From a virus (Duplodnaviria; Caudoviricetes): a DNA stretch of 64,000 nucleotides. Location: the IMG/VR virus record IMGVR_UViG_3300028372_000005, positions 359 through 64,358 of that record; one strand, written 5' to 3'. A program made the translations under genes and the position numbers. Shown here one piece after another: positions 23,482 to 59,116 of this stretch (positions are counted from its first letter, which is position 1; every line of letters starts with the position of its first letter). The notes under the pieces were generated by a model. The model saw only the letters and a list, made by a program, of their open reading frames with translations, had not been told where the DNA came from and searched no databases.

Positions 23482-23802
23482 ATGCACGGCTTGTTGAAAC
23501 TCGCAAATGACGACGACGCCTTCCAGGAACTCTTGCGTCGCCATGTTCTGCCAGTGGTTGAAGGATCCAACGGCAACATGGCGTCGTATTTCAAGGGCGG
23601 CGATTCGATGATGGACCAGCTTTTAAGCCAGGTCGCCACTACCGGGCGTATCCCGCCTGAATCCCACCGCGAGCTGCGCAAGCTCAAACTCAAATACAAC
23701 AACGTCCCCGACCAGCAGCTTTTGTCCAAGGCGCGCGGATCGACTGACGAGCGCACCCTCCAGATCGTGCGTGAGATCATGGAGGCGGAGGACGGGCAAT
23801 GA
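23482..23802 (+). CDS. leader-family protein 1 (MHGLLKLA)
   Basis: N-terminal MxGLxKxA leader; AGGA RBS. Confidence 0.75.
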   Translation: MHGLLKLANDDDAFQELLRRHVLPVVEGSNGNMASYFKGGDSMMDQLLSQVATTGRIPPESHRELRKLKLKYNNVPDQQLLSKARGSTDERTLQIVREIMEAEDGQ

Positions 23803-24506
23803 ACGGACTTTTGAAGACAGCGTCGGCAACCTCCATGCGCATCCCATCCGCAGGTCCACCTCCTGGGGCTGGAGGTAGCGGCGAAAAGGAAGAGAAGTCG
23901 TTTGCCGACAAGGCCAGTGACGTCTGGGACAACCACGGCGGCAAAATCACGGCCGGTGTCGGCCTGCTTGCGGCCGGCGGCCTTGCTAAACACAAAGGCT
24001 GGATTGGCGGCAAGAAAGGCCCGAAGCCTCAACCCAAGCAGCAACAACCCAAGCAGAACACAGCCAAGCAGAACACAGCCAAGCAGACGTCGACCGATCC
24101 CCGGGACAACGACTCCTTTATGGATCGCCTCAAATCGAAGGCGACTGGCAAAAAGACGCCCGGCCAGGCCGCGCACATCGAGCAAGAGTCGGCCAAGCCG
24201 GTCGCGGCCGAAAGCGTGGGGTCGAACCTCGACAAGAGCCTGACCCCCGACGTGTCGGATGCCGACCACAAGGCCATCAACCAGGCCGCGGCCGAAGAAA
24301 CCAACAGTATCTTGGCCGGCAACGAAAACAGTGGTCTCAGCCGCGCGAGCGAAAAGTCGAATGCCAAGCAGCTTCCGGACGGCCCGGATAACACCCCGCT
24401 ATGGAAAGACCCCGACGGCCAACTAAGACACCCCGACGAGAGCTCGAGAGCTCCTAATCGAGACCGGATGTCTGAGCTGTGGAATCAGGGGGATAAATCC
24501 AAGTGA
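23799..24506 (+). CDS. leader-family protein 2 (MNGLLKTA), hydrophobic Gly-rich segment plus disordered tail
   Basis: Leader; WDNHGGKITAGVGLLAAGGL; GGAGG RBS, coupled. Confidence 0.75.
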   Translation: MNGLLKTASATSMRIPSAGPPPGAGGSGEKEEKSFADKASDVWDNHGGKITAGVGLLAAGGLAKHKGWIGGKKGPKPQPKQQQPKQNTAKQNTAKQTSTDPRDNDSFMDRLKSKATGKKTPGQAAHIEQESAKPVAAESVGSNLDKSLTPDVSDADHKAINQAAAEETNSILAGNENSGLSRASEKSNAKQLPDGPDNTPLWKDPDGQLRHPDESSRAPNRDRMSELWNQGDKSK

Positions 24507-25018
24507 ACGGACTCCTCAAACTCGCCGACGTCGACAAGAGCTCGACGATGATTGCGCTGTACCCGCCCGAGGCGTGGTGCGACAAGCTGTATCCGCACGC
24601 GTCCGACGAGGCGTGGGAAGACGGCTTGCACATGACGCTGTTGTACCTTGGAAAGCTCCCCCAGGGCGACGTCGATGAATTGGTGCGCCAGGTGATGAAG
24701 GCGGCCGGCGAGCTCGAACCCATCGAAATGGTGATGAACGGGTCCGGCTGCTTCATGAACGACCAGACCGTGCGCCTGGTGATGCCCAATGGTGTGGGTC
24801 TGAGCAAATGGCGCCACAAGGTCTTCGAGGCCTGCGAATACCTGATGGATCCACCCACCCACGGATTTATTCCGCACATCACTCTGGAGTACCACGACGG
24901 TGAGCTCCCGGTGGGCTGGGAGCAGGCCGCCGACCAGACGTTCCCAGAATGGGTCTGCGATACGCTGTATGTGGTGCGCGGAAATGAGGTCGTCGGCGAG
25001 TGCCCGGTAGGGCCTTGA
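24503..25018 (+). CDS. 2H phosphoesterase (LigT/Acb1-like fold) carrying the leader (MNGLLKLA)
   Basis: Two HxT motifs: LHMTLLYLG and FIPHITLEY. Confidence 0.8.
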   Translation: MNGLLKLADVDKSSTMIALYPPEAWCDKLYPHASDEAWEDGLHMTLLYLGKLPQGDVDELVRQVMKAAGELEPIEMVMNGSGCFMNDQTVRLVMPNGVGLSKWRHKVFEACEYLMDPPTHGFIPHITLEYHDGELPVGWEQAADQTFPEWVCDTLYVVRGNEVVGECPVGP

Positions 25019-25408
25019 CCCCCCTTTTGGCGCCTGTTAAAAAAGGCGTCATGCGAAAAACCTACACACAGCGCATCAATCTCGACGATTTTGGGGAGTA
25101 CGTCGCTCGCCACCACGGCGTGCGCATGTACAAAACGTGCAGGCTCTACCGGCGCCCCCTGCGCCTGGTGTTGTACACCGACATCAAGAGCGGTGAGTTT
25201 CGTATCAGCGGGCACATCCTCATCGACGCCATCCGCGACTTCGCCGGACTCGGCGGGATGGCGATTCGAGACATCGGCGTCAACGAGGGCGAGATCGTCG
25301 TCGAGATCGCCCACAGCCTCGACGAAGAGTGGGAGCCCACCCGTCGCGACATCATCGCCATGATAGTCCTTCTTATCATCACCCTCTCCAGCTTACTTGC
25401 GGTTTTTT

Positions 25409-26191: not shown

Positions 26192-26610
26192 GGGGCCGTA
26201 CTGGTTTCGACGTGAGTCCAGAAGCTCCTGCTACACGCCGCGGAGTCTATCCGCGTTACCAATGGACACAAGTCCTAGTTGACGAAACTAACGACGACAA
26301 TGTCATCTATGCTGACTTCAGTCAGTATGGTGGCGCCAAAACGGTCGCAGCAGCAGCATAAGTCGGCCGCGGCGGTTCAAACCCGCCCGCTCCCGCGATG
26401 TTTGCCGGTCGGTTGACCGGGAGTGAACGACAGACCGGATAAGTCTCGAGCGGAGAGCCTCTAAGCCAACCTCGAGAACGAAACAAAGAGACGAGGCACA
26501 CCGAGAGCCCCTGCCTGTGGGGAACCTCTCGGTTACACAATCACAGGACAGCGTGGACACGCAGGATGTGAAAGACATCGCACACGCGGGTTCGACTCCC
26601 GCCGGCTCCA
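26192..26610 (+). ncRNA. ssrA: tmRNA
   Basis: 5' GGGGCCGTACTGGTTTCGAC and 3' GCGGGTTCGACTCCCGCCGGCTCCA; acceptor stem with G3-U; tag ORF 26281-26361 ending AAAA*; CCA not fully encoded. Confidence 0.93.
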
Positions 26611-26848
26611 CTTTTTGTTTTGACGCACAGGGAAGATGCTAGATCAAATAGAACTCAGTGACGGAGAGAGTATAGATACGGCTCGGGCCACATCGAGATG
26701 TCGGTGACCGAGGGCTATCCGGCCGCCGAGTTTTTCGAGCCTGGTGAGACCTACAAAGTGACCTTCGAGAAGGTCAAGTAGATCAATTTAGGCGAGCAGC
26801 AGCGCCACAGTTGTAGCCCGCACCCCTCGGGTCTGCTGCAGGGGACAA

Positions 26849-26922
26849 ACACCCGTAGCTCAGTTGGTCAGAGCGTCGGCTTGTGGTGCCGAAGGTCGTG
26901 GGTTCGATACCCACCAGATACC
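26849..26922 (+). tRNA. degenerate tRNA-His(GTG) with unpaired acceptor stem
   Basis: D-arm TAGCTCAGTTGGTCAGAGC, anticodon arm TCGGC-TTGTGGT-GCCGA, T-arm GTGGG-TTCGATA-CCCAC; acceptor ACACCCG/CAGATAC pairs only 3 of 7. Confidence 0.7.
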
Positions 26923-27343: not shown

Positions 27344-27610
27344 ATGCAAGGCTTGATGAAGATTGCCAAAGAGCAAAAAACTGGCCCCGTCGGGTCGTCG
27401 GGCGTCAAGAAGACCAAACAGCGGCGCACCGACAAACGTACGCGCGAAAAGCTTCAAAAGAACATCGGTGGCCACCCCGGCCCCAATGGTCGGTACATCA
27501 GCGGGAAGTACTCGCTCAAAAATCCGCCGAAGTCCACCAAGACCAAGCAGCGCGTGGTCAACGGGCTGAAGGCCGACCATATGATCCAACCCAAGGACTC
27601 GAAGAAATAA
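27344..27610 (+). CDS. leader-family basic protein (MQGLMKIA)
   Basis: ATG at 27344 after GGGAGA; Lys/Arg-rich. Confidence 0.75.
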   Translation: MQGLMKIAKEQKTGPVGSSGVKKTKQRRTDKRTREKLQKNIGGHPGPNGRYISGKYSLKNPPKSTKTKQRVVNGLKADHMIQPKDSKK

Positions 27611-27613
27611 TCC

Positions 27614-40129: not shown

Positions 40130-40375
40130 ATGCAGGGATTGATGAAGATCGCCGAATGGGATACTTACGACAAACTCGATCTCCACCACAGCGGGGTGTC
40201 GGATGATGTCGCTAGAAACAACCAACCCAAGCCAGGAAAGAGCTGGCAGAAAAAGCAAGAGCTGATTCGCGCCAAGGATCACGCGAACGGAAACTACCGC
40301 CCCAAGCCTGGCAAGAAAAAAGGCCTCAAAGGCAAGGCAAAGGGACTTCTCAACAAGCTTCGGGGCAAAGGATGA
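40130..40375 (+). CDS. leader-family basic protein (MQGLMKIA)
   Basis: GGAGG RBS; leader; Lys-rich C-terminus. Confidence 0.75.
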   Translation: MQGLMKIAEWDTYDKLDLHHSGVSDDVARNNQPKPGKSWQKKQELIRAKDHANGNYRPKPGKKKGLKGKAKGLLNKLRGKG

Positions 40376-45954: not shown

Positions 45955-46317
45955 ATGCAAGGACTGATAAAGACCGCAGATGCGACCAAGCCGGCCACGC
46001 CGAGCAACCCGCATGTATCAGGGCCCAAGAATGCCCCGAAGAGCTCGACGGTGAGCAATTCGGCCAAACCTACAGGGAAAGTGAAGGGCCTGAACAACCG
46101 CAAAATCTCATCTCCGAAATCCAGCACGTCGACCAAGGCGAAGAATTTCGCCCACAACACCAAAAACCGCGCCAACAAAGTGGTAGGCGCGGTCGGCAAG
46201 AAGTGGAGCGGCCTGGGCACGAAGAGCAAGATTGGCGTTGCCGGTACCGCCGCAGTCGGCGCGGCCGGACTCGGCGCGCTCGCAGGAAAGCTTACTGATG
46301 ACGACAAGGACGACTGA
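45955..46317 (+). CDS. leader-family protein (MQGLIKTA), basic with C-terminal Gly/Ala hydrophobic helix
   Basis: ATG at 45955 after GGAG; IGVAGTAAVGAAGLGALAG. Confidence 0.75.
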   Translation: MQGLIKTADATKPATPSNPHVSGPKNAPKSSTVSNSAKPTGKVKGLNNRKISSPKSSTSTKAKNFAHNTKNRANKVVGAVGKKWSGLGTKSKIGVAGTAAVGAAGLGALAGKLTDDDKDD

Positions 46318-46685
46318 TGAAAGGCCTGATGAAATGCGCCGAAGCGAGCTGGATGCACGCCACGTTCGATTCGCCGATCCCCAAAAACCGCGATGAGCGC
46401 ATCGACCACAACATCCCGTCGGTCATAGGCGCTGGAATTGGCGGTCTTGCGGGTGCGGGTCTCGGAGCGCTCGCGGGCCGAAAGGGGTATGCCGACAGCG
46501 CCGGCAAAGCTGTGCTTATAGGCGGCTCGACCGGCGCCGCCCTGGGCGCGACGGCGGGCCACATCTTCGGCAACAAGAAAATCCTCGACCGCCGAGACGC
46601 CGAAGGCCGGCCGTCGACGAGCGCCGAAGAAGACGAGCAGAAATTCAAGGACTGGTCGGGGCGTGAATACGGGAAGGTGGGCTAA
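46317..46685 (+). CDS. leader-family glycine-zipper protein (MKGLMKCA)
   Basis: IGAGIGGLAGAGLGALAG and IGGSTGAALGATAG. Confidence 0.75.
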   Translation: MKGLMKCAEASWMHATFDSPIPKNRDERIDHNIPSVIGAGIGGLAGAGLGALAGRKGYADSAGKAVLIGGSTGAALGATAGHIFGNKKILDRRDAEGRPSTSAEEDEQKFKDWSGREYGKVG

Positions 46686-46984
46686 TGCAGGGACTACTGA
46701 AGACAGCTGGGCAGGGTGAAGAATCGTTCTGGGATCGCCACGGCGACAAGGTGCTCTACGGGGGCGCCATCCTCGGTGCCGGCGCAGGACTTGGTGCGCT
46801 CGCGCACAACAGTATGAAGAATGAGGCGGTCCACAATGCCAAGAGGAAGCGCAACATCTCCGACCTCGAGGCGGACACGAAGGCGCTCGAGCAAAACACA
46901 TCCAAGCGCACGGACCCTCGGCGTCTTTCGACTCCAGAAGGGTTTGATCAATTCATGGCAAGCGACGAGACATTCATCCTATGA
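46685..46984 (+). CDS. leader-family glycine-zipper protein (MQGLLKTA)
   Basis: FWDRHGDKVLYGGAILGAGAGLGAL. Confidence 0.75.
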   Translation: MQGLLKTAGQGEESFWDRHGDKVLYGGAILGAGAGLGALAHNSMKNEAVHNAKRKRNISDLEADTKALEQNTSKRTDPRRLSTPEGFDQFMASDETFIL

Positions 46985-48459
46985 TTGGCCTCCTCAAAAC
47001 CGCCTCCATCACCAACCCCGCGGGTCTCAACGACGACGTGAAGCTGCAGCCGCACCAGGCGGACGCGGTGCGGCACTCTCGCGGCAAGCCCGGCGTGATT
47101 CTGAATCACGGCCTGGGAAGCGGCAAGACCCTGAGTTCGCTCGCGATCGCCGAGGACCGAGGCGGCCGAACGCTCGCGGTCACCCCCGCCTCGCTCGAGC
47201 AGAACTACAACAAAGAAATCCAGAAATTCGTCAAGCCCGACCGCCACGACTCCTACAAGACGGTCAGCTACGCAAAATTTCGCAAAGACCCGATGAAGTA
47301 CGTGCGCGAGCACAAACCCGACACGCTCATCACCGACGAGATGCATCGGCTTCGAAACCCCACTCAGGCCCAAAAAGCGATCCAGTCGGTCCGGCCGCAC
47401 GTCAAACACCACGTCGGCATGACCGCGTCGCTGGTGAACAACCACCCATCTGAGGTTGCAGGGCTGGTGAACACGGTCTCCGGGCAGCATGTGATGAGTC
47501 AGGAGGATTTCAATCGCAAGCATATCGGCACCAAGAAGAAGGGGCCGGGGCTTTGGGGTTGGCTTAAGGGCATCAAGCCCGGTGAAGAGGAAAGCATCCG
47601 AGACCCCGAGGGTCTCAACAAAGCGCTTGGTCCCTACATCCACCGCTTCTCAGGCGACCCGGAGTACCAGAAGAACCTGCCGAAGGTCGAGATGGAGAAC
47701 GTCGATGTCGAGATGGGCGACAAGCAGCAAGATCTGATGAAGGCGCTCGGCAAGTCCAATCCGAGCATGGACTACAAGCTTCGCAACAACCTGCCGCCGT
47801 CCAAACAAGAGAAGAAAAACCTCAACTCGTTTCTCACGGCGATGCGCCAGACCGCCAACTCTCCGGCGCCCTACGACAAGACCGTCAAAGACCCGATGGA
47901 GCACTCCCCGAAGATGCGCCGGATGGTCGAGGATATGCAGGGCGCGGCCAAAGACGACCCGAACTTTCGGGGGGTGATGTACTCGAACTACCTCGACGGT
48001 GGCATCAACCCGGTCTCGGAGGCGATGAAGGACGATAAGATGCTCCGGTCGGGCGTCTATCAGGGCTCACTCACTCAGAAGAAGCGCAAAGAACTCCTCG
48101 ACCAGTTCGAAAAGGGCGATGTCAACGTGCTCGGACTCAGCCCGGCCGGCGCCGAAGGCATCGATCTCAAGGGCGTGAAGCAGATGCAGGTCATGGAGCC
48201 GGACTTCAACCCCGAGACCACTGAGCAGGCCATGGGGCGTACGGCGCGCTACAAATCCCACCATCATTTGCCGGAAGACGAGCGCAAGGTTAACATCAAA
48301 AAATACCGCTCGGTGTACCCCAAAAAGTGGCACCACCGCTTCGTCGACCGCGACACATCCGTCGACGAGTATATCGATCAGATGTCGAAGGACAAAAAGC
48401 GGCTCAACGACGAATTCTACACTGCGCTCAACGCGTATACGCCTGAGGATGCGACATGA
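46981..48459 (+). CDS. SNF2-like SF2 helicase carrying the leader (MIGLLKTA)
   Basis: LQPHQ, HGLGSGKT, TDEMHRLRN, MTAS, SPAGAEGIDLKG, QAMGRTARY. Confidence 0.88.
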   Translation: MIGLLKTASITNPAGLNDDVKLQPHQADAVRHSRGKPGVILNHGLGSGKTLSSLAIAEDRGGRTLAVTPASLEQNYNKEIQKFVKPDRHDSYKTVSYAKFRKDPMKYVREHKPDTLITDEMHRLRNPTQAQKAIQSVRPHVKHHVGMTASLVNNHPSEVAGLVNTVSGQHVMSQEDFNRKHIGTKKKGPGLWGWLKGIKPGEEESIRDPEGLNKALGPYIHRFSGDPEYQKNLPKVEMENVDVEMGDKQQDLMKALGKSNPSMDYKLRNNLPPSKQEKKNLNSFLTAMRQTANSPAPYDKTVKDPMEHSPKMRRMVEDMQGAAKDDPNFRGVMYSNYLDGGINPVSEAMKDDKMLRSGVYQGSLTQKKRKELLDQFEKGDVNVLGLSPAGAEGIDLKGVKQMQVMEPDFNPETTEQAMGRTARYKSHHHLPEDERKVNIKKYRSVYPKKWHHRFVDRDTSVDEYIDQMSKDKKRLNDEFYTALNAYTPEDAT

Positions 48460-48848
48460 ATGGTTTGATGAAAGTAGCAGAGATCAATAGCGAAAGAACT
48501 TTCGACGATATGAAGAACCAGATGGCCGGCGATGCTGCAATAACTGGCACACGAGGTGCGATTATCGGGGCGTCTTTGGGGCCTATGGGCGCCTTGGGTG
48601 GTGGCGTTCTGGGTGCTGGAGCGGGTGTACTCGGGGGGGCTATGAGAGGTGGTGCTGGAACCTTGATTCATCAAATTGGTGATGGCGGCGATAGTGAAAA
48701 AAGCCTGGCGAGAAGCGCCGGGACTGGCGCCATTGGTGGTGCAGCCTTTGGGGCGGTCGGCGGCGGGCTTCCTGGGGCTGCTATAGGCGCCGGGCTTGGT
48801 GCCGCAGGTGGGGCGCTTGGTAATTACCTTCGAAGTGACGACGAGTAA
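48456..48848 (+). CDS. leader-family glycine-zipper protein, copy 1 (MNGLMKVA)
   Basis: Multiple GxxxG runs; AT-richer codon usage. Confidence 0.75.
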   Translation: MNGLMKVAEINSERTFDDMKNQMAGDAAITGTRGAIIGASLGPMGALGGGVLGAGAGVLGGAMRGGAGTLIHQIGDGGDSEKSLARSAGTGAIGGAAFGAVGGGLPGAAIGAGLGAAGGALGNYLRSDDE

Positions 48849-48880
48849 GATAACTGGTTTGTGAATAAAAAGGATACGGC

Positions 48881-49273
48881 ATGAATGGTTTGATGAAAGT
48901 GGCAGAGATCAATAGCGAAAGAACTTTCGACGATATGAAGAACCAGATGGCCGGCGATGCTGCAATAACTGGCACACGAGGTGCGATTATCGGGGCGTCT
49001 TTGGGGCCTATGGGCGCCTTGGGTGGTGGCGTTCTGGGTGCTGGAGCGGGTGTACTCGGGGGGGCTATGAGAGGTGGTGCTGGAACCTTGATTCATCAAA
49101 TTGGTGATGGCGGCGATAGTGAAAAAAGCCTGGCGAGAAGCGCCGGGACTGGCGCCATTGGTGGTGCAGCCTTTGGGGCGGTCGGCGGCGGGCTTCCTGG
49201 GGCTGCTATAGGCGCCGGGCTTGGTGCCGCAGGTGGGGCGCTTGGTAATTACCTTCGAAGTGACGACGAGTAA
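48881..49273 (+). CDS. leader-family glycine-zipper protein, copy 2 (identical protein)
   Basis: Same 130-aa translation as 48456..48848. Confidence 0.75.
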   Translation: MNGLMKVAEINSERTFDDMKNQMAGDAAITGTRGAIIGASLGPMGALGGGVLGAGAGVLGGAMRGGAGTLIHQIGDGGDSEKSLARSAGTGAIGGAAFGAVGGGLPGAAIGAGLGAAGGALGNYLRSDDE

Positions 49274-49305
49274 GATAACTGGTTTGTGAATAAAAAGGAT
49301 ACGGC

Positions 49306-49659
49306 ATGAATGGTTTGATGAAAGTGGCATCGATGGGTAAGTCCGCAAAGAACAAATGGCAGAAAATGTGGGGAGGGCTCAAGTCTGAGTCAAAATCCCG
49401 CATCATGTCTGGCAGCCGAAATAGTCCCGCCAATGCCCCGTATGGCAACAATATGGTGTTCCCCAAAAATAGAAATAGCACCCCGCCTGAGAGGAAGCGT
49501 GTAGCTGGAAGATCAAGCAAAAAGCCAGCTGGGCACAATAGGCTTTCGGATCATTTAGCTGAGAGAGCAAAATGGAAGAGTATATTAAAGTCTAGAATCA
49601 AATCAGAGCGGAAGTACGAGCGTAACGGCAAGCGAGTAAAGCCCAACCTACCCAAGTAG
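49306..49659 (+). CDS. leader-family highly basic protein (MNGLMKVA)
   Basis: Leader; Lys/Arg-rich; AAGGA RBS. Confidence 0.72.
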   Translation: MNGLMKVASMGKSAKNKWQKMWGGLKSESKSRIMSGSRNSPANAPYGNNMVFPKNRNSTPPERKRVAGRSSKKPAGHNRLSDHLAERAKWKSILKSRIKSERKYERNGKRVKPNLPK

Positions 49660-49727: not shown

Positions 49728-52700
49728 GTGTCCCTTCCGTACAACACGCACAAAAATCTGCTCGAGAACCTCGAGGACTACCTTCGAGACACGCTCAACA
49801 TCAAACAGGGCGACCGCGAGTTGGTCGTCAAGCGCATCGATATGCCCTCGACCGAGTCGCACGACGACCTTCGGTCACAAAAGAGTGCCAAAATTCAGGG
49901 CATCTCCTACAAAAAACCCGTGCGCGCGACACTCGAGCTCAAAGTCGACAACAAGACCGAGGACACAGCGACCGTCACGTTGCTCGACCTGCCGCAGGTG
50001 ACCACCCGCGGCACCTACATCGTCGAGGGCAACGAGTACAGCTTCCCGCTCCAAAAGCGCCTGCTTCCGGGCGTGTACACCCGTGAAAAACCAGACGGCA
50101 CGATCGAGGCGTGGATCAACTCGTCGAAGGGTAAAAACCTTCGCCTCCAGCTTCGCGAGCAGGGCGACTTCGTGCTCGATACGGGCAAAAAGATCAACCT
50201 CCTGGCCCTGCTGGTCGGACTTGGCATCGATCGCCAGCGCATCCGGCGGGTGTGGGGCGACGAGGTCTACCGCACCAACAAGGGCGCGCGGGGGGCCGGC
50301 AACGAGCTCGGGGCGCTCAAAAAGCTTTACGACTCTCTGCATTACGACGGCGACGAAGACGTCGACAAAAAAGATGTGCCGACGCTGAGGCGCTGGCTGC
50401 TGAACTACTTCGAGGAGAACAGCGAGCTCGACCCGCAAAACGTCGAGATGACACTCGGCCGGGAAGCCTCGCGGGTGTCGGCCGACCTGTTCATGGTCAT
50501 CACGAAAAAGATCCTCGAGGTCTCCCGCGGCGAGTCCGAAGAGGACAACCGCGAGTCGCTCATCCACAACGCGGTGTTCGACCTGAGCGATTTCGCCATC
50601 GAGCGGCTCAACCACCGCCAGTACCGCTCGAAGATCGCGCGCACCCTGCAACGGAACCTGCAGAAATTCGACAAGGTCAGTGACGTCGTCCAGAAGCGGC
50701 TTTTCCAGGGGCCACTCGACTCGACGTTTACCCAGACATCTCTCGCCAGGATCCCCAAGCAGAACAACCCCATGGACCTGATGGCCTCCTTTTCGGAGAT
50801 CACTTCCATGGGTGAGGGTGGCATCGAGACACGCCACGCGGTCAGCCGCGAGACGCGCGCGGTCGATCCGTCGCATCTGAACTTCATCGACCCGATGCAC
50901 ACCCCCGAGGGGCAAAGCCTGGGGACAAGTCTGCATCTGGCGAAGGGCGTCAAAAAACGCGGGAAGGACCTCGTCAAGAAGGTCTGGGACGTCAAAAAAG
51001 GCGAACAGGTCGAGGTGACTCCGCGCGAGATGTACATGAAGCCGACAGCCTTCGCAGAGTACTACAAGGAGGAAGATGGCCGTCTCGAGCCCGACGATGA
51101 CGGTAAGATCAAGGTCAGCCACAAGGGAGAAATCAGTCGCGTCTCGCCCCACGAGGTGCGCTTTGCGATGCGTCGCACCACCGACATGTTCGGGTACAAC
51201 TCGCTGGGGATGCCGTTTTTGTCACACAACAACGGCACCCGCGGGATGACGGCCTCGAAGATGCAGTCGCAGGCGAAATCGCTCGTCCACCGCGAAGTGC
51301 CCAAAGTCCAGGCCGCCATCGACGAACACTCCGGCGCCACCGTCGAGCAGCTCATGGGGAAGTTCAGCGTCCCCAAAGCCCCGGTCGACGGCAAGGTGGT
51401 CAAGCTCGAGGAGGATAACCTCGTCATCCGGGATGCGGACGGAAAGTCCCACAAGGTCAATTTCCCAAAAAGCTTCTGGCTCAATGACCACAACTTCCAG
51501 GACACCGAAATCACCGTCTCCAAGGGTGATCGGGTGACCAAAGGCCAGGCGCTGGGGGATACGAACTACACCAAAGACGGTGAGCTCGCGCTGGGGACGA
51601 ACCTCAAAACGGCGTATGTGCCATACAAGGGTTTGAACCACGAGGACGGCGTGGTCGTCAGCGAGACGGCGGCCAAAAAACTCACCTCGATGCACGCCTA
51701 TCAGAAAACGGTGCCGGTGGGCGACAACGAGGTCTTGAGCAAAAAGAAGTACCAGGCCTACTTCCCATCGCTGTATACCGCCGATCAGCTCAGCAAGCTC
51801 GACGACGACGGCGTGGTCAAAAAGGGCCAGCGCATCAAAAAGGGTGACCCGCTGGTCGTCAAGATGCGCAAGGTCGAAGAGGATACGGCCTCGAAGCAGC
51901 TCAAAAACATCAGCCGCCTTCTGACCCAGGATTTTCGCGACGGCTCGATCGTCTGGGACAAGGCAACAGAAGGCGTGGTCGAAGAGGTTCATCCCCGAAA
52001 CGACGACGTACTGGTGGTCGTCAAGACCGAAGAGCGGGCGAAAGTCGGCGACAAGCTCGTTGGGCGTCATGGAAACAAAGGCACGATTACCACGATCATC
52101 GACGACGGCGAGATGCCTCGCGGCGAGGACGAAGAGCCCCTCGAGCTCCTACTCAACCCCAACGGGGTCATCAGCCGGATGAACACCGGCCAAATCATGG
52201 AGGTCACCGCCTCGAATATCGCCAACCACGACGGCAAGCCCTACGTCTCCAAGCCCTTTGGGAAGAACCACTCCAAAGAGATTTTGGACGAGCTCAAAGA
52301 GCGGGGCTTAAAAGACCACAGTACGATCTACGACCCCACCGAAGACAAGCACATCGAGGGCGTGCTCGTCGGCGACCACTACACGCTCAAGCTCGAGCAC
52401 AAGGTCGACAAGAAGCTTAGCGCCCGCGGCGCGGGGCCCGGCGAGGCCTATTCGCTCTCTGGCCAGCCCTCCCAGGGCAAGGGTAAGGGCGGCCGGTCCA
52501 TCGGTCTTGGGGAGATGTATGCACTGCTCGCCCACGGCGCCGATGCGAACTTAAAAGAGATGTACACCTTCAAGGGTGACAAATCGATCGAGCACTGGCG
52601 CGCGATTGAAAACGGCACGGCACTACCGAAGCCGAATATGCCGAACTCGAGCAAGAAGTTCGTCTCGATGCTTCGCGGCATGGGCGTGAACCTCGAAGAG

Positions 52701-55700
52701 GACGATAAGGGAGATGTGAAGATGGCGCCGTTTCTGGACCGCCATGTGCGCGACATCTCCAACGGAGAAATCAAAGACGCGACTGCCCTGCGGGCCAAAG
52801 ACCTCAAAGAAGAGAAGGGCGGACTGTTCGACCTGGAGACCACCGGCGGACTCGAGGGCACGAAGTGGTCACACATCGAGCTCGCAGAACCTTTGCCGCA
52901 CCCGACGTTTTTGAAGGCGATCAGGGATGTCACCAAGCTCAGAGGCCACGAGATCGACGATCTGGTCGGCGGCAAGAAGGGTGTCGTCGGCGGCAAGCTC
53001 GTCGCGGCCGACAAGCCGGGCGCAACCACCGGCGGCGAGGGCCTGCGAAAACTGCTGAAGTCCATCGACCCCGACAAGCGCCTCAAAGAGATCAAGGAGA
53101 AGGCGCCCAAAGCGAGCGGCTCCAAGCTCAATAAGATGCACCGCGAGGCGCGCACACTCAAAAACTTCAAAGAGAAGGGTGTGGGTCTCGACGAGATGGT
53201 TGTCGACACCATCCCGGTCATGCCGCCGAAGTTTCGGCCGGTCATCGAGCTGCCCGGCACCGGAGACATCTCGGTCGCCGACGTCAACGAGCACTACCGC
53301 TCGACGATTCTGATGAACAACCAGCTCAAGGCGCTCAAGGGCAAGAAGGGGCTGCAAAAACAGCGCGACAAGGTCCGAAAATCCCTGTTTGATGGCTTCA
53401 GTGGTTCGATGGGGATGTCGATGGGGCTCGTCCAAGACGAAAACGTCAAGGGCCTGGCCGAGACGGTCGCCGGTACGAATCCGAAGTCGGGGTATTTCCA
53501 AAAAAGGCTTTTGAAGCGCCGCCAGGACACCTCCGGCACGGCTGTGGTTGGGCCGGACCCGGACCTCGACATGGATCAGATCGGGGTGCCCGAGCAGATG
53601 GCCTGGAAGATTTTCAAGCCCCACATCAAGCGCGAGCTTCGAGGTCAGGGGCTCACACCCCTGCAGGCCGAACAAGAGATCGAGGACCGCACCAAGCTCG
53701 GCAACGACGCGCTGCAGCGCGCCATGGGCGACCGTCATGTGATGGCGAATCGCGCGCCGACCTTGCACAAATTCTCCATTATGGCGTTCAAGCCCAAGCT
53801 TATCCCGGGCCATGCTGTGAAGCTGCCGGTCGAAGTGCTCGGCGGGTTCAACGCCGACTTCGACGGAGATACGTTCGGCATTCACGTGCCAGCGACCGAG
53901 GAAGCCAACAAGGAAGCCGAAGACCTGCTGCCGTCGAAAAATATGTACCTGCCCGGCCGCAACCGCGAGGAGATGAACCCCGGGTTGAGCCACGAGTACG
54001 TGCTCGGCCTGTTCAAAATCACCCGCAAGGGCGCGGCCAAATCGAACACCTACGACTCTCCTGAAGAGGCGATCAAGGCTGCGGACACCGAGCGCATCGA
54101 CTGGACCGACACCGTGCGAATCAGCGGAATCGGCAAGACCACCGCCGGCCGGTGCAAGGTCATGGCGGCCGTGCCCGAGAAGCTTCGCGACTACAACGCC
54201 CGGCTCGACAACGGCAAAATCAAGGATTTCTTCAAGCGTATCCAGAAAGAGGAGGGGGACGGCGCGTTCAAAGACACGTTGGGCGCCTGGAAGAAGATTG
54301 CCAAAAGCTACGCCTACACCTCCGGCTCGAGCTTTTTGCTCTCGGATATGAAGGATTCGGCGAAGCTGTCACGAGAGCGCGACAAGCTGTACGCCGACGC
54401 CGACCGTCAGGTGCAGAGCGTGCGCGGCGATCGACGCCTGTCCGACGAAGACCGAAAAAAGAAGGTCATCGACCTGTATGGCGAGGTCGACAAATACGTC
54501 AAAGACAAGTCGATCAAAATCAAAGGCAATGACGCCGGCAAATCGAACAACATCTCGGATATGGTCGAGGCCGGTGCGCGCGGAAACCCCGACCAGGTCA
54601 AACAGCTCGTCGGAAGCCTGGGGCTCATGCTCAACCATCGTCAAGAGACGATGGAGGAGCCAGTGCGCGGCAACTACGCCGAAGGCCTGAGCTCGTCGGA
54701 CTATTTTGCGCACCTGTACTCCCAGCGAAAAGGCATGATCGATAAGACCCAGTCGGTCGCGGGGCCGGGGTATCTCGCCAAAGAGCTGACCAACTCGGCG
54801 GCCGACATGAAAGTCACCGAGAAGGACTGCGGGACCAAAGAGGGGCGCTACGAGAAGGTTGATGGCCACCTCAAAGACCGCGTGCTCGCCGACTCGGTCG
54901 GCTCGACGACGCGCGGCACCGTCATCGACGACTCCGTGCTCTCGAGCATCGAGAAGCTCAAAAAGCCGAAGGTGAAGGTGCGCTCAATTCTAACCTGCGA
55001 ATCGACACAGGGAGTGTGCGCGAAGTGCTTTGGCTACGATGAGACGGGCAGCTTCCCTATGGTTGGCAAGAATGTGGGCATCTCGGAGGTGCAGGCCTTG
55101 ACCGAGCGCGCAACGCAGCTTCCCATGAAATCCTTCCACACGGGCGGCGTCGCCACCGCAGAAACTGGCCTCTCCAACGCCTTCGATCGCGCCCAGCAGA
55201 TTCTGCAGATGCCCGAGAATATCAAGGGCAAGGCCGTCCTCGCCGAAGTGAGCGGGCCGGTCCAAAAGATCAAGTCGTCTGGATACGGCGGCAAGGTGGT
55301 GGTCGTGAGCGGCAAAGACCACAAAATCCCCCAGAAGCTCGACGTCAAAGTCAAAATTGGCGAGCGCGTCAAAAAGGGTGATCCGCTGTCGACGGGTGTC
55401 ACTCAGTCCCAGGACGTGCTGCGCCTTCGCGGCATCAATGACGTGCAGACCCAGATGCGCGACGATCTGCACCAGACGTTCTCGTCGGCTGGGGTGAATC
55501 TGTCGAAGAAAAACTACGAAGTCACCGTCAAGTCACTGACCGACAAGGTGCGCGTCCAAGATTCGGGGGACTCAGAAAAGTGGGTGCCCGGCGACTACGC
55601 CAAGCTCCCTCAGGTCAAGGCGTGGAACAATCAAAACCCCACAGGCCGCCAGGTCACCTACAAGAGCGTGCTTCCTGGCGCCCAACAAAATCCCCACAAG

Positions 55701-56321
55701 GGTGACGACTGGGCGCAGCGTATGGCGCTGAGCCGTATCAAGACGACCATCGAGGAGGGCGGGCCGCAGGGGTTTTCAAGCTCCCGCACCTCCGGCTCCC
55801 CGTTCGCCGATCTGGCGCTTGGGCCGGGATCGAATCTTGTCGGTCCGGGCCTTGAGGCGATGGATAAGATGAGCTCGGCGTATTTCAGCATGCTCCCCTG
55901 GCCGACCGAAGCCAGCGCGATCGCGTGCCTGGTCGACATCGAAAAGGCCGCCGGCTTCACCTTCGAGCCCGTCGAGCTCGACGCGATCTTTGAGGCGCGC
56001 ATGAGCGTCGACCAGATGATTGAGAAGATCGCCGAGCGCTCGACGCCCGCAGAAAAAGAGCGCGCGCGTCGGTACTACCAGGAAAACAAAGACGAGATTT
56101 CCCGTAAGCGCAAGCTCCGTCAGCGCAAAATCCAGTCCGGCGTGCAGCGCAAGCGAAAGCGCATCGGCTCGCCCGGCGCCGGCTACCAGTACATCCACAG
56201 TGATGAGGAAGAAGATGGTTCGTCGCAGGGAGGCGTACGCCTGGGCGGCAATCCGAACTTCGACCCCAACGAGAATCCGCGATCGACTGAGAAGAAGCAG
56301 GACATGAAGAGGGTTACATGA
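49728..56321 (+). CDS. single-chain multisubunit-type DNA-directed RNA polymerase (beta-beta' fusion)
   Basis: beta: GDKLVGRHGNKG, NPNGVISRMN, GEM..L.AHGA; beta': GGLFD, HIEL, PVMPP.FRP, NRAPTLH, NADFDGD (53850-53870), SQRKGMID, CAKCFG, TQLPMKSFHTGG; GAGGAGG RBS. Confidence 0.95.
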   Translation: MSLPYNTHKNLLENLEDYLRDTLNIKQGDRELVVKRIDMPSTESHDDLRSQKSAKIQGISYKKPVRATLELKVDNKTEDTATVTLLDLPQVTTRGTYIVEGNEYSFPLQKRLLPGVYTREKPDGTIEAWINSSKGKNLRLQLREQGDFVLDTGKKINLLALLVGLGIDRQRIRRVWGDEVYRTNKGARGAGNELGALKKLYDSLHYDGDEDVDKKDVPTLRRWLLNYFEENSELDPQNVEMTLGREASRVSADLFMVITKKILEVSRGESEEDNRESLIHNAVFDLSDFAIERLNHRQYRSKIARTLQRNLQKFDKVSDVVQKRLFQGPLDSTFTQTSLARIPKQNNPMDLMASFSEITSMGEGGIETRHAVSRETRAVDPSHLNFIDPMHTPEGQSLGTSLHLAKGVKKRGKDLVKKVWDVKKGEQVEVTPREMYMKPTAFAEYYKEEDGRLEPDDDGKIKVSHKGEISRVSPHEVRFAMRRTTDMFGYNSLGMPFLSHNNGTRGMTASKMQSQAKSLVHREVPKVQAAIDEHSGATVEQLMGKFSVPKAPVDGKVVKLEEDNLVIRDADGKSHKVNFPKSFWLNDHNFQDTEITVSKGDRVTKGQALGDTNYTKDGELALGTNLKTAYVPYKGLNHEDGVVVSETAAKKLTSMHAYQKTVPVGDNEVLSKKKYQAYFPSLYTADQLSKLDDDGVVKKGQRIKKGDPLVVKMRKVEEDTASKQLKNISRLLTQDFRDGSIVWDKATEGVVEEVHPRNDDVLVVVKTEERAKVGDKLVGRHGNKGTITTIIDDGEMPRGEDEEPLELLLNPNGVISRMNTGQIMEVTASNIANHDGKPYVSKPFGKNHSKEILDELKERGLKDHSTIYDPTEDKHIEGVLVGDHYTLKLEHKVDKKLSARGAGPGEAYSLSGQPSQGKGKGGRSIGLGEMYALLAHGADANLKEMYTFKGDKSIEHWRAIENGTALPKPNMPNSSKKFVSMLRGMGVNLEEDDKGDVKMAPFLDRHVRDISNGEIKDATALRAKDLKEEKGGLFDLETTGGLEGTKWSHIELAEPLPHPTFLKAIRDVTKLRGHEIDDLVGGKKGVVGGKLVAADKPGATTGGEGLRKLLKSIDPDKRLKEIKEKAPKASGSKLNKMHREARTLKNFKEKGVGLDEMVVDTIPVMPPKFRPVIELPGTGDISVADVNEHYRSTILMNNQLKALKGKKGLQKQRDKVRKSLFDGFSGSMGMSMGLVQDENVKGLAETVAGTNPKSGYFQKRLLKRRQDTSGTAVVGPDPDLDMDQIGVPEQMAWKIFKPHIKRELRGQGLTPLQAEQEIEDRTKLGNDALQRAMGDRHVMANRAPTLHKFSIMAFKPKLIPGHAVKLPVEVLGGFNADFDGDTFGIHVPATEEANKEAEDLLPSKNMYLPGRNREEMNPGLSHEYVLGLFKITRKGAAKSNTYDSPEEAIKAADTERIDWTDTVRISGIGKTTAGRCKVMAAVPEKLRDYNARLDNGKIKDFFKRIQKEEGDGAFKDTLGAWKKIAKSYAYTSGSSFLLSDMKDSAKLSRERDKLYADADRQVQSVRGDRRLSDEDRKKKVIDLYGEVDKYVKDKSIKIKGNDAGKSNNISDMVEAGARGNPDQVKQLVGSLGLMLNHRQETMEEPVRGNYAEGLSSSDYFAHLYSQRKGMIDKTQSVAGPGYLAKELTNSAADMKVTEKDCGTKEGRYEKVDGHLKDRVLADSVGSTTRGTVIDDSVLSSIEKLKKPKVKVRSILTCESTQGVCAKCFGYDETGSFPMVGKNVGISEVQALTERATQLPMKSFHTGGVATAETGLSNAFDRAQQILQMPENIKGKAVLAEVSGPVQKIKSSGYGGKVVVVSGKDHKIPQKLDVKVKIGERVKKGDPLSTGVTQSQDVLRLRGINDVQTQMRDDLHQTFSSAGVNLSKKNYEVTVKSLTDKVRVQDSGDSEKWVPGDYAKLPQVKAWNNQNPTGRQVTYKSVLPGAQQNPHKGDDWAQRMALSRIKTTIEEGGPQGFSSSRTSGSPFADLALGPGSNLVGPGLEAMDKMSSAYFSMLPWPTEASAIACLVDIEKAAGFTFEPVELDAIFEARMSVDQMIEKIAERSTPAEKERARRYYQENKDEISRKRKLRQRKIQSGVQRKRKRIGSPGAGYQYIHSDEEEDGSSQGGVRLGGNPNFDPNENPRSTEKKQDMKRVT

Positions 56322-57895
56322 GCGCAGCCGAAGAGTATCCGGCCGCCTATCTATCCGAGTGGGCCGCCAACGGCATCAACGTCGCCCCGCGCGAGAAGAT
56401 GACCTACAACGGCCGTCGCTGGATGCCGGCGATGTTCGACACCCAGGCCCAGCGGCGCGTCTGCAAGATGAGTCGCCAGGTGGGAAAGTCGACCTTCGGC
56501 TCGGCGTTCTCGCTGATGCTTATGGCAAACCATCGGCGCTTCAACGTCCTGTACGCCGCCCCCGAGCAAGACCAGACCTCCAAATATAGCTGGGATAAAG
56601 TCGCCCCAATGATCGCCGGCTCGCCTGGGTTCGACAACATCATCGGGGTGCCCAACAACGTCTTCGAGAAGAAGTTCGCCAACACCGAGTCGAAGTACTA
56701 CCTGAAGTGGGCCAAGCACAACCCGGACGCCTGTCGTGGTCTGACCGTCGACATGGTCCACTACGACGAGGTCCAGGACCAGACGCTCGACGAGATCGAG
56801 CCGGTCATCAACGAGGCGATGTTCACCTCGGAGCACGAGAAGCTGTTGTACACCGGCACGCCGAAGTCACTGGTCAATCCGATCCACGGACTGTGGAAAA
56901 AGAGCGACCAGCGAGAATGGGTCATCACCTGTGGTGGGTGCTCGAAGTATGTGAATCTGGGCATCAAAAACATCGGAAAGCACGGGCCGATCTGTCACCA
57001 CTGCGGCAAGATTCTGGACGTCGACAACGGTCAGTGGATTCGTCACAACCGCGCCTCCAAGATGGCCGGATTCCACGTCCATCAGATGCACTGCAAAATC
57101 TCGTACATGAAGCTCAGGGGTGGCATCTGGGTGCCCAACCAGAACAAGTGGGACAGCATCCTCAAGAAGTTCGAGGACTATCCCCGGCCGAAATTCTTAA
57201 ATGAGGTCTTAGGCATGTCGGCCGACACCGCCGATGTTCCGATCACAGAAGCCATGCTCCGGCGCATCTGTGGGGCGCACAAAATTGTCGAGGACCCGCC
57301 GTCGTCGTACATGCGCGCGCCGATCTATGCTGGCATCGACTGGGGGCGGGGGCCTGCAGCGACCGTCTTGACGCTCGGGCAGTTCTACAAGGGGAAGTTT
57401 CGTTTTCTGTATCTGAAAAAATTCAAGGGTGACGCGGCCCACCCCCAGTACTGCATCCCGAAGATTTTGCAGACACTCAAGACCTGGAGGGTCGCCAGGG
57501 TCCACTGCGACCACGGCATGGGATTTGGCATGAACAGCCAGATCGCCGAGGGGTACGGGGATAATCGGGTCACGGCCTGCTACTACTCGAGCTCGGCGAA
57601 GTCGGCCGACTACACCTGGAAGACCAAGAACAAAGAGGTGCCGTGTCTGACGCTGAACAAATCCAACGCAGTGTCGGCCTTCATCGAGCGCATCCGCAAG
57701 CGCCACATCGTCATGCCCCGCCAGGAAGAGTTCTTTGATGAGTTCTCAGAAGACTTTTTGAACGTGCGCGCTGAAGTCGACCGCCACGACAACCTCAGGT
57801 ACTTGAAGGCCGAAGGCGAGAACGACGACGCGTTCCACGCCGCACTGTACTGCTATGTGATCGCGAACTTCGATACGGCCGGCTCTAAAATTTGA
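56318..57895 (+). CDS. terminase large subunit
   Basis: KMSRQVGKST Walker A, HYDEVQD Walker B, TGTP, CGGC..CHHC, GIDWG and DDAFHA nuclease motifs. Confidence 0.88.
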   Translation: MSAAEEYPAAYLSEWAANGINVAPREKMTYNGRRWMPAMFDTQAQRRVCKMSRQVGKSTFGSAFSLMLMANHRRFNVLYAAPEQDQTSKYSWDKVAPMIAGSPGFDNIIGVPNNVFEKKFANTESKYYLKWAKHNPDACRGLTVDMVHYDEVQDQTLDEIEPVINEAMFTSEHEKLLYTGTPKSLVNPIHGLWKKSDQREWVITCGGCSKYVNLGIKNIGKHGPICHHCGKILDVDNGQWIRHNRASKMAGFHVHQMHCKISYMKLRGGIWVPNQNKWDSILKKFEDYPRPKFLNEVLGMSADTADVPITEAMLRRICGAHKIVEDPPSSYMRAPIYAGIDWGRGPAATVLTLGQFYKGKFRFLYLKKFKGDAAHPQYCIPKILQTLKTWRVARVHCDHGMGFGMNSQIAEGYGDNRVTACYYSSSAKSADYTWKTKNKEVPCLTLNKSNAVSAFIERIRKRHIVMPRQEEFFDEFSEDFLNVRAEVDRHDNLRYLKAEGENDDAFHAALYCYVIANFDTAGSKI

Positions 57896-58122
57896 GGTTG
57901 CCGATGACTTTCCACCGGCTGGCCGACGGCGTGACATCAGGGGCGTCGAAGACGCTATCGCCCGGCAACGCCCTCGCCGACAGCTGGTCTTCGAGAGTGG
58001 GCTTGTCGTCGCCTTCCTGGCGCATCTGGGTGAACATGTCATCGGGCTCTGAGGGGTCGTCAGATGCGTTGGCATCCGCCTCAGACTCCTCCTCCAGGGC
58101 TGGCAGTCCCGCAAAAAAGTCA

Positions 58123-58938
58123 TCAGACATCGTCTTTCTCCTCGTGGCCGCTCGCCTCGAGAGGGTCGTACCCGTCGAGCTCATTGGCGTCAGTGGCAGT
58201 TTGCTCTGAGTATATGATGGTGCGTTTGAAGATGTCTGGCAAGTCGGCAGTCTGGCCGGTCTCGTTGTCTTTGAGGGTCTTGTAGGCCGACATCACGTTT
58301 TTTTGGTACTTGATGACCGTGTCGTCGGCCGCCATGCCGAAGCGTTGCAGCTCTTTGGCCCGAAAGAACCCATCCTTCATGATATCTTCGAGCATCGCCT
58401 CCGGGTCGATGTCGATGTCGGCGCCGGCGCGGTGGGCCAGGTGCTTGTCGCGCCAGGGGCCGCTCACCACAGGCTGCGTATGCCCTTTTGGGTCGGCCGA
58501 AGCGATGTCGTAGGCGCTGAGGCGGTCGGTGTCGCAGAACAGCTTTTTGTATAGCCCTATCGTCTCCTCAGAAATCGCCTCTTTGAACTTGTAGTACAGC
58601 GCATCGACGACCCACTGGGTCTCGCAGTGCTCTTTGAGCATGGCCTCGATGACGCCCGAGATGGCTTTTTCTTCGGGGAGTCTGAGCGCGCGGTCAAGGT
58701 CGGGGTCGGGCTCATTGCCGCGTTTTAGGTCACGCTCGTACTCGAGCACGCAGGTCAGCTCGAGTACATCAAACGGGGCACGCTTGGAGCTGGCCTCCTC
58801 CTTGAGCCTGCGCGCTGCGATTTTGAAGTTTTTGTCAGTGAGGTCGGGGTGGTCGCGGCCGAGCAGCGCGTGGTACATCACCCAGCGCCAGTTTGGCACC
58901 CGGGGGATGATGCTATTGAGCTTACGGTCCATATTCAC
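58123..58938 (-). CDS. hypothetical protein of the morphogenesis cluster
   Basis: 271-aa ORF, coupled with neighbours. Confidence 0.65.
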   Translation of the reverse strand: MNMDRKLNSIIPRVPNWRWVMYHALLGRDHPDLTDKNFKIAARRLKEEASSKRAPFDVLELTCVLEYERDLKRGNEPDPDLDRALRLPEEKAISGVIEAMLKEHCETQWVVDALYYKFKEAISEETIGLYKKLFCDTDRLSAYDIASADPKGHTQPVVSGPWRDKHLAHRAGADIDIDPEAMLEDIMKDGFFRAKELQRFGMAADDTVIKYQKNVMSAYKTLKDNETGQTADLPDIFKRTIIYSEQTATDANELDGYDPLEASGHEEKDDV

Positions 58939-59116
58939 CTTGCTCGATCACGTTCGGCTTGGTCTCGCCCTTGCGGGTGTTTTTGCCGATATCCTTGATG
59001 AGATCTTTTCGTTCTTTGCTGGTCGACGACGCCTCCGCCTTCGGAGGATTGGTGGGCTTTGGGGGATCCACATTCTGGGCCGGGTTCAAAAGCGCACATT
59101 TGATCAGACCTCTCAT
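58922..59116 (-). CDS. leader-family small protein (MRGLIKCA)
   Basis: Leader on the minus strand, GGGAG RBS, coupled to the upstream gene. Confidence 0.72.
   Translation of the reverse strand: MRGLIKCALLNPAQNVDPPKPTNPPKAEASSTSKERKDLIKDIGKNTRKGETKPNVIEQGEYGP

Follow-up and report, generated by a model that had tools for sequence, protein, structure and literature searches.

What leads thirteen open reading frames (ORFs) of one phage to begin with the same eight residues, when the bodies behind them are for the most part unrelated? The question is raised by a 64,000-nucleotide stretch of viral DNA (Duplodnaviria; Caudoviricetes), positions 359 to 64,358 of the IMG/VR record IMGVR_UViG_3300028372_000005, referred to as the window hereafter, in which the leader M-x-G-L-[LMI]-K-x-A opens ORFs between positions 23,482 and 59,116. 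The answer that we favour, with moderate confidence, is that the leader is the recognition and cleavage site of the lineage's prohead-maturation protease, an enzyme of predicted gp21 fold, and that this site is placed at the N-terminus of capsid-internal proteins. This reading is preferred because the motif flanks the gp21-fold domain in the protease of related phages, recurs in the tail of that protein and in scaffold-like and capsid proteins, and heads unrelated small proteins. Most likely, then, the leader is a targeting-and-processing peptide comparable to the capsid-targeting sequence (CTS) of phage T4 but with a new cleavage code, in which the targeting role is presumed by likeness, and the tagged proteins are most likely capsid cargo that would be trimmed in the head and injected with the DNA.

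The leader motif is real and is selected at the peptide level. In the six-frame translation of the window, x-x-G-L-[LMIV]-K-x-A was found 13 times, and all 13 matches lie on a start codon (12 ATG and one GTG, the latter at 24503); the M-form is expected by chance 0.01 times on average, with a maximum of 1 in 100 mononucleotide shuffles. A GGAG-like ribosome-binding site occurs 6–12 nt 5′ of most of the tagged starts. Since the codons vary at the invariant residues (GGC, GGA and GGT 4, 5 and 4 times for Gly; five codons for Leu4; AAA and AAG 8 and 5 times for Lys; four codons for Ala), the leader must have been selected as a peptide. A sequence-only reading of this DNA, made earlier by a model, had claimed both the 13 leaders and their synonymous variation, and every one of the 13 was recovered at the coordinate stated there, with the three Gly, five Leu4, two Lys and four Ala codons just given.

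The link from this peptide to a protease comes from relatives of the phage. Salmonella phage Arash and the Vibrio phages D69, D148 and D181 are the cultured ones, D69 being a second laboratory system. In the Arash head-module proteins encoded between the helicase and the capsid gene, the motif lies 20–30 residues from the N-termini, and the capsid proteins of Arash (..DQGLVKEAGA), of locus L016 and of D69 carry QGL[VT]KEAG about 26 residues in. Among the 17 proteins of the Arash tail/baseplate stretch (gp1–gp17), no comparable site was found except a trivial MKKAT in the terminase. The Arash protein gp222 (491 residues) belongs to a well-conserved family, 69 sequences of which were aligned (alignment A5). 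One site, with the consensus G-L-[VTE]-K-T-A-S, has K29 and A31 in 69 of the 69 sequences, and the window leader x-G-L-[LMI]-K-x-A is the same as this consensus. Another site follows the conserved domain, with K227 and A229 in 67 of the 69 and the consensus [YF]-A-M-A-K-V-A-S. Ser comes next after Ala in 39 and 43 of the 69 sequences at the first and second sites, respectively, and H102 and S158 are invariant. Many further K-x-A sites occur in the C-terminal halves of these proteins. The same arrangement was seen beyond the alignment: K-x-A stands N-terminal to the NxNGDxF block and catalytic domain in 72 of 74 further anchorable members, against 10 of 74 for a reversed control.

The structure of gp222-family residues 1–254 was predicted with AlphaFold2 (AF2) from the 69-sequence alignment, giving a predicted local distance difference test score (pLDDT) of 81.1 and a predicted template modelling score of 0.78, with both sites in low-confidence linkers; a model from the six-sequence alignment A4 (pLDDT 44.5) was discarded. 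In a Foldseek search with the model, the sole matches at E ≤ 0.001 were T4 gp21 chains, 5jbl_A (2.7e-4) and 5jbl_B (3.9e-4); the third T4 gp21 chain, 5jbl_C, was given E 1.0e-3, and all three chains had a probability of 1.00. A VIA-align comparison with 48,161 chains matched T4 gp21 at Z 12.7 (149 aligned residues, root mean square deviation 2.7 Å), the next matches being the proteases of varicella-zoster virus (VZV; Z 5.8) and human cytomegalovirus (HCMV; Z 4.8). Taken from this model, the gp222 family consists of serine proteases that fold like T4 gp21. The profiles S77 (T4 gp21), S78 (HK97), S78_2 (XkdF) and DUF2213 matched in 0 of 4 or 0 of 5 records, including the complete 172- and 181-kb relatives, although the S77 and DUF2213 searches are weak, their controls having given no match. 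The sequence-only reading had regarded the leader as an address tag for head cargo, analogous to the T4 CTS and unrelated to it in sequence. The relation is probably closer than analogy, since the protease has the gp21 fold in its model, and the tie to the head is borne out insofar as the leader is the motif that flanks this protease and marks capsid and scaffold-like proteins; the evidence speaks for a processing site, and the eight residues may or may not be the address as well.

The gp222 family is large, with 4,648 cluster representatives at E ≤ 0.001; at the stricter E ≤ 1e-30, 2,371 are left. It has no Pfam model, and the Pfam domains recorded for it are inteins and one PF18823 entry. 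The protein 0270 of Vibrio phage D69 is homologous to the protease (E 3e-102). Many members are 800–1,700 residues long (P0169, P0171, P0203, P0219, P0220, P0222 and many of P0241–P0364), their matches break near profile positions 162–176, and some of the long ones carry intein and LAGLIDADG domains; these features together imply repeated intein invasion near the catalytic Ser region.

The tagged ORFs of the window are as follows. On the plus strand, 23482..23802 (106 residues, MHGLLKLA) and 23799..24506 (235 residues, MNGLLKTA) belong to no family, and 24503..25018 (171 residues, GTG start, (M)NGLLKLA) encodes a 2H phosphoesterase (PF13563, E 2.9e-11). Two basic proteins on the same strand both begin with MQGLMKIA: 27344..27610 (88 residues, 29% Lys plus Arg) and 40130..40375 (81 residues), which lies directly 3′ of the ribonucleotide reductase (RNR) gene. 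Seven tagged genes, also on the plus strand, lie between the portal and RNA polymerase genes, the first being 45955..46317 (120 residues, MQGLIKTA). It is followed by the Gly/Ala-rich 46317..46685 (122 residues, MKGLMKCA), 46685..46984 (99 residues, MQGLLKTA) and the SNF2 helicase at 46981..48459 (492 residues, MIGLLKTA; Helicase_C E 7.6e-15, SNF2-rel_dom E 9.6e-13). The last three begin with MNGLMKVA: the glycine-rich 48456..48848 (130 residues), its exact duplicate at 48881..49273 (130 residues) and the basic 49306..49659 (117 residues, 28% Lys plus Arg). On the minus strand, a 64-residue ORF at 58922..59116 begins with MRGLIKCA. The contig being about 35% complete, the 13 tagged ORFs are a lower bound.

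When the 13 bodies, each from residue 9 to the end, were compared by BLASTP, they were mutually unrelated with two exceptions: the bodies of 48456 and 48881 are 100% identical, so that 12 distinct bodies exist among the 13, and a weak match over 19 residues links those of 46685 and 23799 (E 0.001). The claim of the sequence-only reading that similarity ends after residue 8 is therefore correct for most bodies and wrong for the identical pair, with the weak match as a further reservation. A Pfam scan of the bodies took in 10 of the 13 ORFs. The SNF2 helicase, the 2H phosphoesterase and the basic proteins (26–29% Lys plus Arg in the bodies of 27344, 40130 and 49306) are present as had been claimed, while the glycine-zipper match, that of 48456 (E 1.2e-4), is below the curated cut-off. 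It was also found, in agreement with the same reading, that the identified replication and nucleotide enzymes do not carry the motif at their N-termini (DnaE, class II RNR, ThyA, the primase-helicase, the two exonucleases, SSB and dCTP deaminase). A fragment of a 99%-identical strain (locus L083) has a single copy of the 130-residue gene, an extra paralogue of 46317 and a different small basic ORF (window 48456–49329; L083 2958–4340), and these differences imply that the cargo set turns over quickly at this hot spot.

The SNF2 helicase has hundreds of metagenomic homologues, and many of them start with leader variants directly before the helicase Q motif, such as MLALLKTAG, MKGLIKIAA, MSLIKLA and ..FW.GFEKRA. 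We took 160 loci around SNF2 homologues from IMG/VR and metagenome contigs. In each related phage, several neighbouring genes were found to share a leader peculiar to that phage, and K-x-A closes every one of these leaders. Among them are MTSM[LI]EKVA on seven genes (L145), M..F.YGFFDEL.K[IL]A on seven (L103) and MNKQAYLENVYNSAFNDEL.KIA on nine (L125), with a variant in six genes of L089; M[ND][LI]Y.[YF]WLMEK.A, MKY[LMF][IT]K.A and MYKTA.QIA. are further forms. Leaders within one phage co-vary far beyond the K-x-A core, sharing up to 23 residues (L125). The invariant residues are Lys and Ala; the relatives often have E before K, where the window has L, M or I, and no window leader contains any Glu. 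In a Pfam scan of 60 leader-bearing proteins, two SNF2 proteins, one glycine zipper and three marginal cases were matched, and the remainder gave no match.

A search for N-terminal families that used no motif, a family being at least three genes that share at least five of eight N-terminal residues, gave 18 families among 161 loci (2,538 greedily chosen ORFs) and none in the internal-window control, and K-x-[AS] is present in 18 of the 18. This procedure drops many small genes and found just 3 of the 13 tagged ORFs of the window. A version that ran over all start codons and frames was abandoned, as its 104 'families' were swamped by low-complexity and antisense ORFs. Over 2.19 Mb, the N-terminal motif was counted 358 times, against 159 for the reversed motif. 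The pattern search with shuffled controls that the sequence-only reading had proposed comes out positively in the window, while the whole proteome of the window's phage, which it had also proposed to scan, is out of reach at about 35% completeness. Locus searches by the polymerase alone and by the portal alone yielded, respectively, one distant giant-virus-like locus and one useful relative, L170, which is closer by its portal (51% identity). L170 has one ORF starting with MKGLIKYA (at 2560, beside the SSB gene and 5′ of the RNR gene), ORFs starting with MEKNA and MEKYA, and a homologue of the window's 41201 protein described below. In Vibrio phage D69 (L167), small head-module proteins start with MDKVA, MFKSAS and MDNVDTLLEKIA (26862–27041, 35745–36053 and 40316–40771). 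In the Arash record, an unannotated 155-residue ORF starting with MMEKVAS lies at 172528–172995 (L166 12529–12996, minus strand), in the gp240–gp241 annotation gap.

Looser copies of the motif, which the sequence-only reading had overlooked, also exist in the window. The pattern [LIVMF][LIVMFE]K.A was scanned over the 96 predicted window proteins and gave 27 sites; shuffling within each protein gave 7.4, with no more than 15 in any of 300 rounds. Of the sites, 15 lie in the first 12 residues, against 0.5 expected. One bearer is a scaffold/core-like protein of 338 residues (41201..42217, plus strand) standing just 5′ of the portal region: it begins with MKTWKFEKRA and has four sites (FEKRA at residues 6–10, IEKQA at 87–91, LVKTA at 238–242 and IEKIA at 307–311), where about 0.13 would be expected for its length, and its L170 homologue has eight K-x-A sites. 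It shows a weak DUF6582 match, and its Atlas model is of low confidence. Another is a conserved 675-residue protein (59113..61140, minus strand) with a 15-residue leader ending in PLVKLA (..QPLVKLAG); 13 aligned relatives have the leader ..P.F[EK]K.A ahead of KLSDNP..W. The last is the C-terminal extension of the RNA polymerase (55938..56321, plus strand), which is absent from relatives and contains IEKAA (55938–55952) and MSVDQMIEKIA (56001–56033) followed by a basic tail; its sequence has the look of a small tagged protein that has been joined to the polymerase or is started internally. By sequence, no match in the PDB was obtained for the 41201 protein, the 59113 protein or profile A4, and look-ups in the ESM Atlas gave only leads below the noise level (0.92 for unnamed viral clusters, 0.87 for DUF6582 and 0.81 for portal-like clusters).

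The remaining content of the window places these genes in their genome. The record is linear, 64,358 bases long and about 35% complete by CheckV, and its complete relatives are 170–190 kb (two of them at 172 and 181 kb); the source phage has a genome of roughly 180 kb with a fused β-β′ RNA polymerase, and the window is a fragment of it. A DNA search with 20 kb of the window against the INPHARED phages gave no match. The portal protein (746 residues; 43383..45623, plus strand) matches Arash portal gp204 (E 6.7e-55) and those of Vibrio phages D69, D181 and D148. The fused polymerase (2,197 residues; 49728..56321, plus strand) has no N-terminal leader and is followed by the large terminase subunit (56318..57895, plus strand). 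The polymerase is likewise fused in L004, L005, L007, L109 and L125, and it is split into subunits in Arash and Vibrio phage D69. Besides the primase-helicase, two DEDD exonucleases, SSB, dCTP deaminase and class II RNR, the window encodes a thymidylate synthase (ThyA; 1377–3068, plus strand) interrupted by an in-frame HNH/NUMOD-like endonuclease segment (PHROG and Pfam matches in two stretches) and a DnaE-type DNA polymerase III alpha subunit (30296–34198, plus strand) with an intein that has a homing-endonuclease-like insert (Pfam Intein_splicing at residues 752–982; PHROG HNH matches). A phage-encoded transfer-messenger RNA was found by ARAGORN at 26192–26611 (plus strand), with a 26-residue tag peptide ending in ..GGAKTVAAAA. 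The stretch 61000–64000 has a G+C content of 0.52–0.53, against about 0.59 elsewhere, with AT skew near nil, and two long candidate minus-strand ORFs in the last 3 kb (61341–62483 and 62494–63531) have poor codon-usage scores.

If the leader is a prohead-protease site, the following course may be proposed. The tagged proteins would be made late or continuously and would enter the assembling prohead, probably by docking of the leader to the protease or to the scaffold core, as the T4 CTS does. The protease would then cut after Ala, with K at P3, A at P1 and usually Ser, Glu, Asp or Gly at P1′, and the same motif would serve it for cleaving its propeptide and the scaffold-like protein as well as, in relatives, the capsid protein. 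The mature proteins, beginning at residue 9, would remain in the head and be ejected with the DNA and the virion RNA polymerase. The ejected set might include the SNF2 helicase as partner of the polymerase, the 2H phosphoesterase, the basic, DNA-binding-like proteins and the glycine-zipper proteins, the last perhaps forming a channel through the envelope.

As to the position of the cut, the proteases of T4, phiKZ and SPN3US cut after x-x-E, and all the characterised relatives of the protease cut after Glu (PMC5694885). The Q motif could be recognised in 107 SNF2 homologues. In 67 of them K-x-A lies upstream of it, and in 42 of these 67 K stands exactly 10 residues before it. The 40 homologues without K-x-A include 13 whose first residue, Met, lies exactly 8 residues ahead of the Q motif, at the position of Ala. 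A cut after Ala (K-x-A↓S) is therefore probable from sequence comparison, given that the leaderless SNF2 proteins start at the Ala place, that Ser frequently follows Ala and that the pattern is of the P3-x-P1 kind also seen in L/I-x-E of T4, A-x-E of SPN3US and V/L-x-A of herpesviruses.

Several observations weigh against the prohead-protease-site reading, and they concern the window, the leaders and the virions of Arash. First, the link of the protease to the window rests on relatives, the contig having neither a protease nor a capsid gene. No gene for a capsid, protease or tail protein came up in Pfam, PHROGs and profile searches of the window; for ten candidate head proteins, Pfam and PHROGs yielded nothing of use even at E up to 5; no window ORF matched the profile of the Arash-type capsid protein, and none matched the gp222-family profile at E ≤ 10. 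The capsid miss was first read as divergence, for which incompleteness of the contig is a better explanation: at about 35% completeness, and with complete relatives of 170–190 kb, the capsid, protease and tail genes of this phage most likely lie off the contig. Relative G006 (191 kb, 91% complete), which has the fused polymerase, the terminase and the 675-residue protein family in common with the window, does encode the protease. Second, five of the 13 tagged genes lie among replication or early-looking genes, outside the head module, and in some relatives the leader has just five residues (MEKVA), which seems little for an address. Third, the cut may fall after Lys instead of Ala.

The virion data of Arash speak partly for the prohead-protease-site reading and partly against it. 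The RNA polymerase proteins gp206 (3,516 spectral counts, the most detected) and gp216 (1,210), the capsid protein (1,333) and the SNF2 helicase gp217 (1,148, with 38 unique peptides) were detected in virions, as were the motif-bearing gp220–223 (PMC10585845). This SNF2 homologue has no leader and is nevertheless abundant there, and the polymerases of relatives with a fused or untagged enzyme, like that of the window, also lack one; the leader is therefore not the sole route into the head. The reported peptides cover gp221 and gp223 to 100% and gp220 to 95.8% (PMC10585845). Such coverage is unexpected if 20–35 N-terminal residues are removed quantitatively. This metric, however, looks unreliable, since several proteins reach 100% from two unique peptides and 116 proteins are called virion-associated. 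The proteome listed there contains 116 of about 250 proteins, and the loose motif occurs in 43 of 648 Arash ORFs with a chance-like scatter.

In its strongest form, the prohead-protease-site reading would make the eight residues the whole address: the cargo would be recruited simply because a gp21-fold protease, tethered to the scaffold, binds it in its cleft as it does any substrate, the specificity of this enzyme having changed from Glu to Lys-x-Ala, and the same code would hold across thousands of uncultivated large-genome phage lineages with virion RNA polymerases (contigs of about 170–190 kb where complete). We regard this extension as tentative and rather doubtful.

Among the alternatives, the one that survives best holds that the motif is a processing site only: the cargo would enter bound to DNA, to the scaffold or to the polymerase, and trimming or activating it would be all that the protease does. 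The leader is indeed hardly more than Met-x plus the site consensus, and the relatives' leaders as short as MEKVA fit such a view, as does the presence of the leaderless Arash SNF2 protein and polymerases in virions; the polymerase subunits of SPN3US enter only as an assembled complex (PMC5694885). However, if a dozen small, unrelated proteins each lose five to eight residues, this has no evident use unless the peptide had acted earlier, and leaders that stand at the extreme N-terminus and co-vary beyond K-x-A suggest that their partner makes more contacts with them than a protease subsite would. In T4, moreover, the equivalent N-terminal propeptides of 10–20 residues act as capsid-targeting sequences (PMC3012670, PMC5694885). 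We thus consider processing without targeting unlikely.

The leader might instead be a docking peptide for a partner other than a protease, such as the portal, the virion RNA polymerase or a multi-substrate modifying enzyme as in the systems that make ribosomally synthesized and post-translationally modified peptides. All the loci were chosen via the SNF2 helicase that accompanies the phage RNA polymerase, so that a linkage to the polymerase is partly built into the sample, and the incomplete contig leaves room for an unseen partner. Nevertheless, a motif that flanks the protease domain and turns up many more times in the C-terminal half of the protease, as well as in scaffold-like proteins, has the pattern of self-processing, and the neighbourhood of the tagged genes showed no modifying enzyme; this alternative is accordingly quite improbable. 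Finally, a leader unrelated to the capsid, that is, a signal for N-terminal degradation, translation efficiency or localisation such as a membrane-targeting helix or a ClpX-type N-degron (polar-hydrophobic-hydrophobic-basic-hydrophobic), would suit the extreme N-terminal place, the glycine-zipper or hydrophobic helices of several tagged bodies and the five tagged genes outside the head module, but it is very improbable, because the same motif is internal, 20–40 residues in, in the capsid, protease and head-module proteins of relatives and occurs four to eight times in the scaffold-like protein, codon variation excludes a signal in the mRNA, and the leader has no signal-peptide-like hydrophobic stretch.

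If the leader is a prohead-protease site, hydrophobic-x-K-x-A at or near an N-terminus would flag capsid-internal, probably injected proteins in a very large group of phages that is almost unstudied, and a lineage of gp21-fold proteases with a likely non-Glu specificity would be at hand. The nominated injected factors would be the SNF2 helicase with the virion RNA polymerase, the 2H phosphoesterase, which could act on RNA or on cyclic-nucleotide signals, and the basic and glycine-zipper proteins. It would also make the leader a candidate for a very short tag by which foreign proteins could be packaged in capsids. Should the eight residues be the whole address, the injected proteome of the clade would be readable from sequence, and M-x-G-L-L-K-x-A could load any protein into capsids.

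No description of the K-x-A motif was found in the literature, supplements not being covered, and only the T4 and phiKZ/SPN3US systems surfaced. The nearest likeness is to the T4 CTS of IPI–III and Alt, removed by gp21: there, as probably here, a short N-terminal propeptide is common to unrelated proteins and ends in the cleavage motif, the protease uses this motif also on itself, the scaffold and the capsid, and the cargo is diverse and fast-evolving (PMC3012670, PMC5694885). The systems differ in the site, which is hydrophobic-x-K-x-A, probably with Ala at P1, here and L/I-x-E with Glu at P1 in T4; in the leader, which in the window is eight residues with little beyond the site; and in the protease, which in the relatives has about 500 residues, a Zn-ribbon-like CxxC insert and a long, site-rich C-terminal half and belongs to no Pfam protease family. 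The phages phiKZ, 201phi2-1 and SPN3US are large, and their virions contain a multisubunit RNA polymerase together with many ejection proteins, as those of the present phage would; their gp21-type protease (gp175/gp245) processes the capsid, the portal, internal proteins and itself at one short motif (PMC5694885). Also shared is the linkage of an SNF2 helicase with the polymerase genes (PMC7824862). In contrast to the short uniform tag on many small proteins seen here, the propeptides of these phages often exceed 100 residues; Glu is the residue after which their proteases cleave (A-x-E, S/A/G-x-E), and the polymerase of the window is a single fused β-β′ chain.

More distant systems share single features. 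Herpesvirus assemblin cuts its maturation and release sites at V/L-x-A↓S. It belongs to the same fold superfamily as the relatives' protease, a match that is weak on its own (the VZV and HCMV values given above), and in both systems Ala precedes a frequent Ser; here, however, Lys at P3 and hydrophobic P4–P5 are added, and the herpesvirus sites are known from the scaffold and protease only, with no cargo set. In Staphylococcus phage 80α, the capsid and scaffold proteins, together with ribosomal protein L27, have a common N-terminal extension that is removed by the host protease Prp. This is likewise a short shared leader on head proteins that is removed at a fixed site ending before Ala, but the enzyme is a host cysteine protease, the motif is another one and two structural proteins are concerned, whereas here the phage's own gp21-fold protease, as modelled in relatives, carries the motif. 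The cargo-loading peptides of encapsulins are short and portable and load unrelated cargo into a shell of HK97 fold, but they are usually C-terminal, remain uncleaved and bind the shell protein directly. Compared with T4 and phiKZ, what differs here is the presumed Lys-x-Ala code, the very short and uniform leader, the other architecture of the protease and a different phage lineage with a virion multisubunit polymerase, which in the window is fused.

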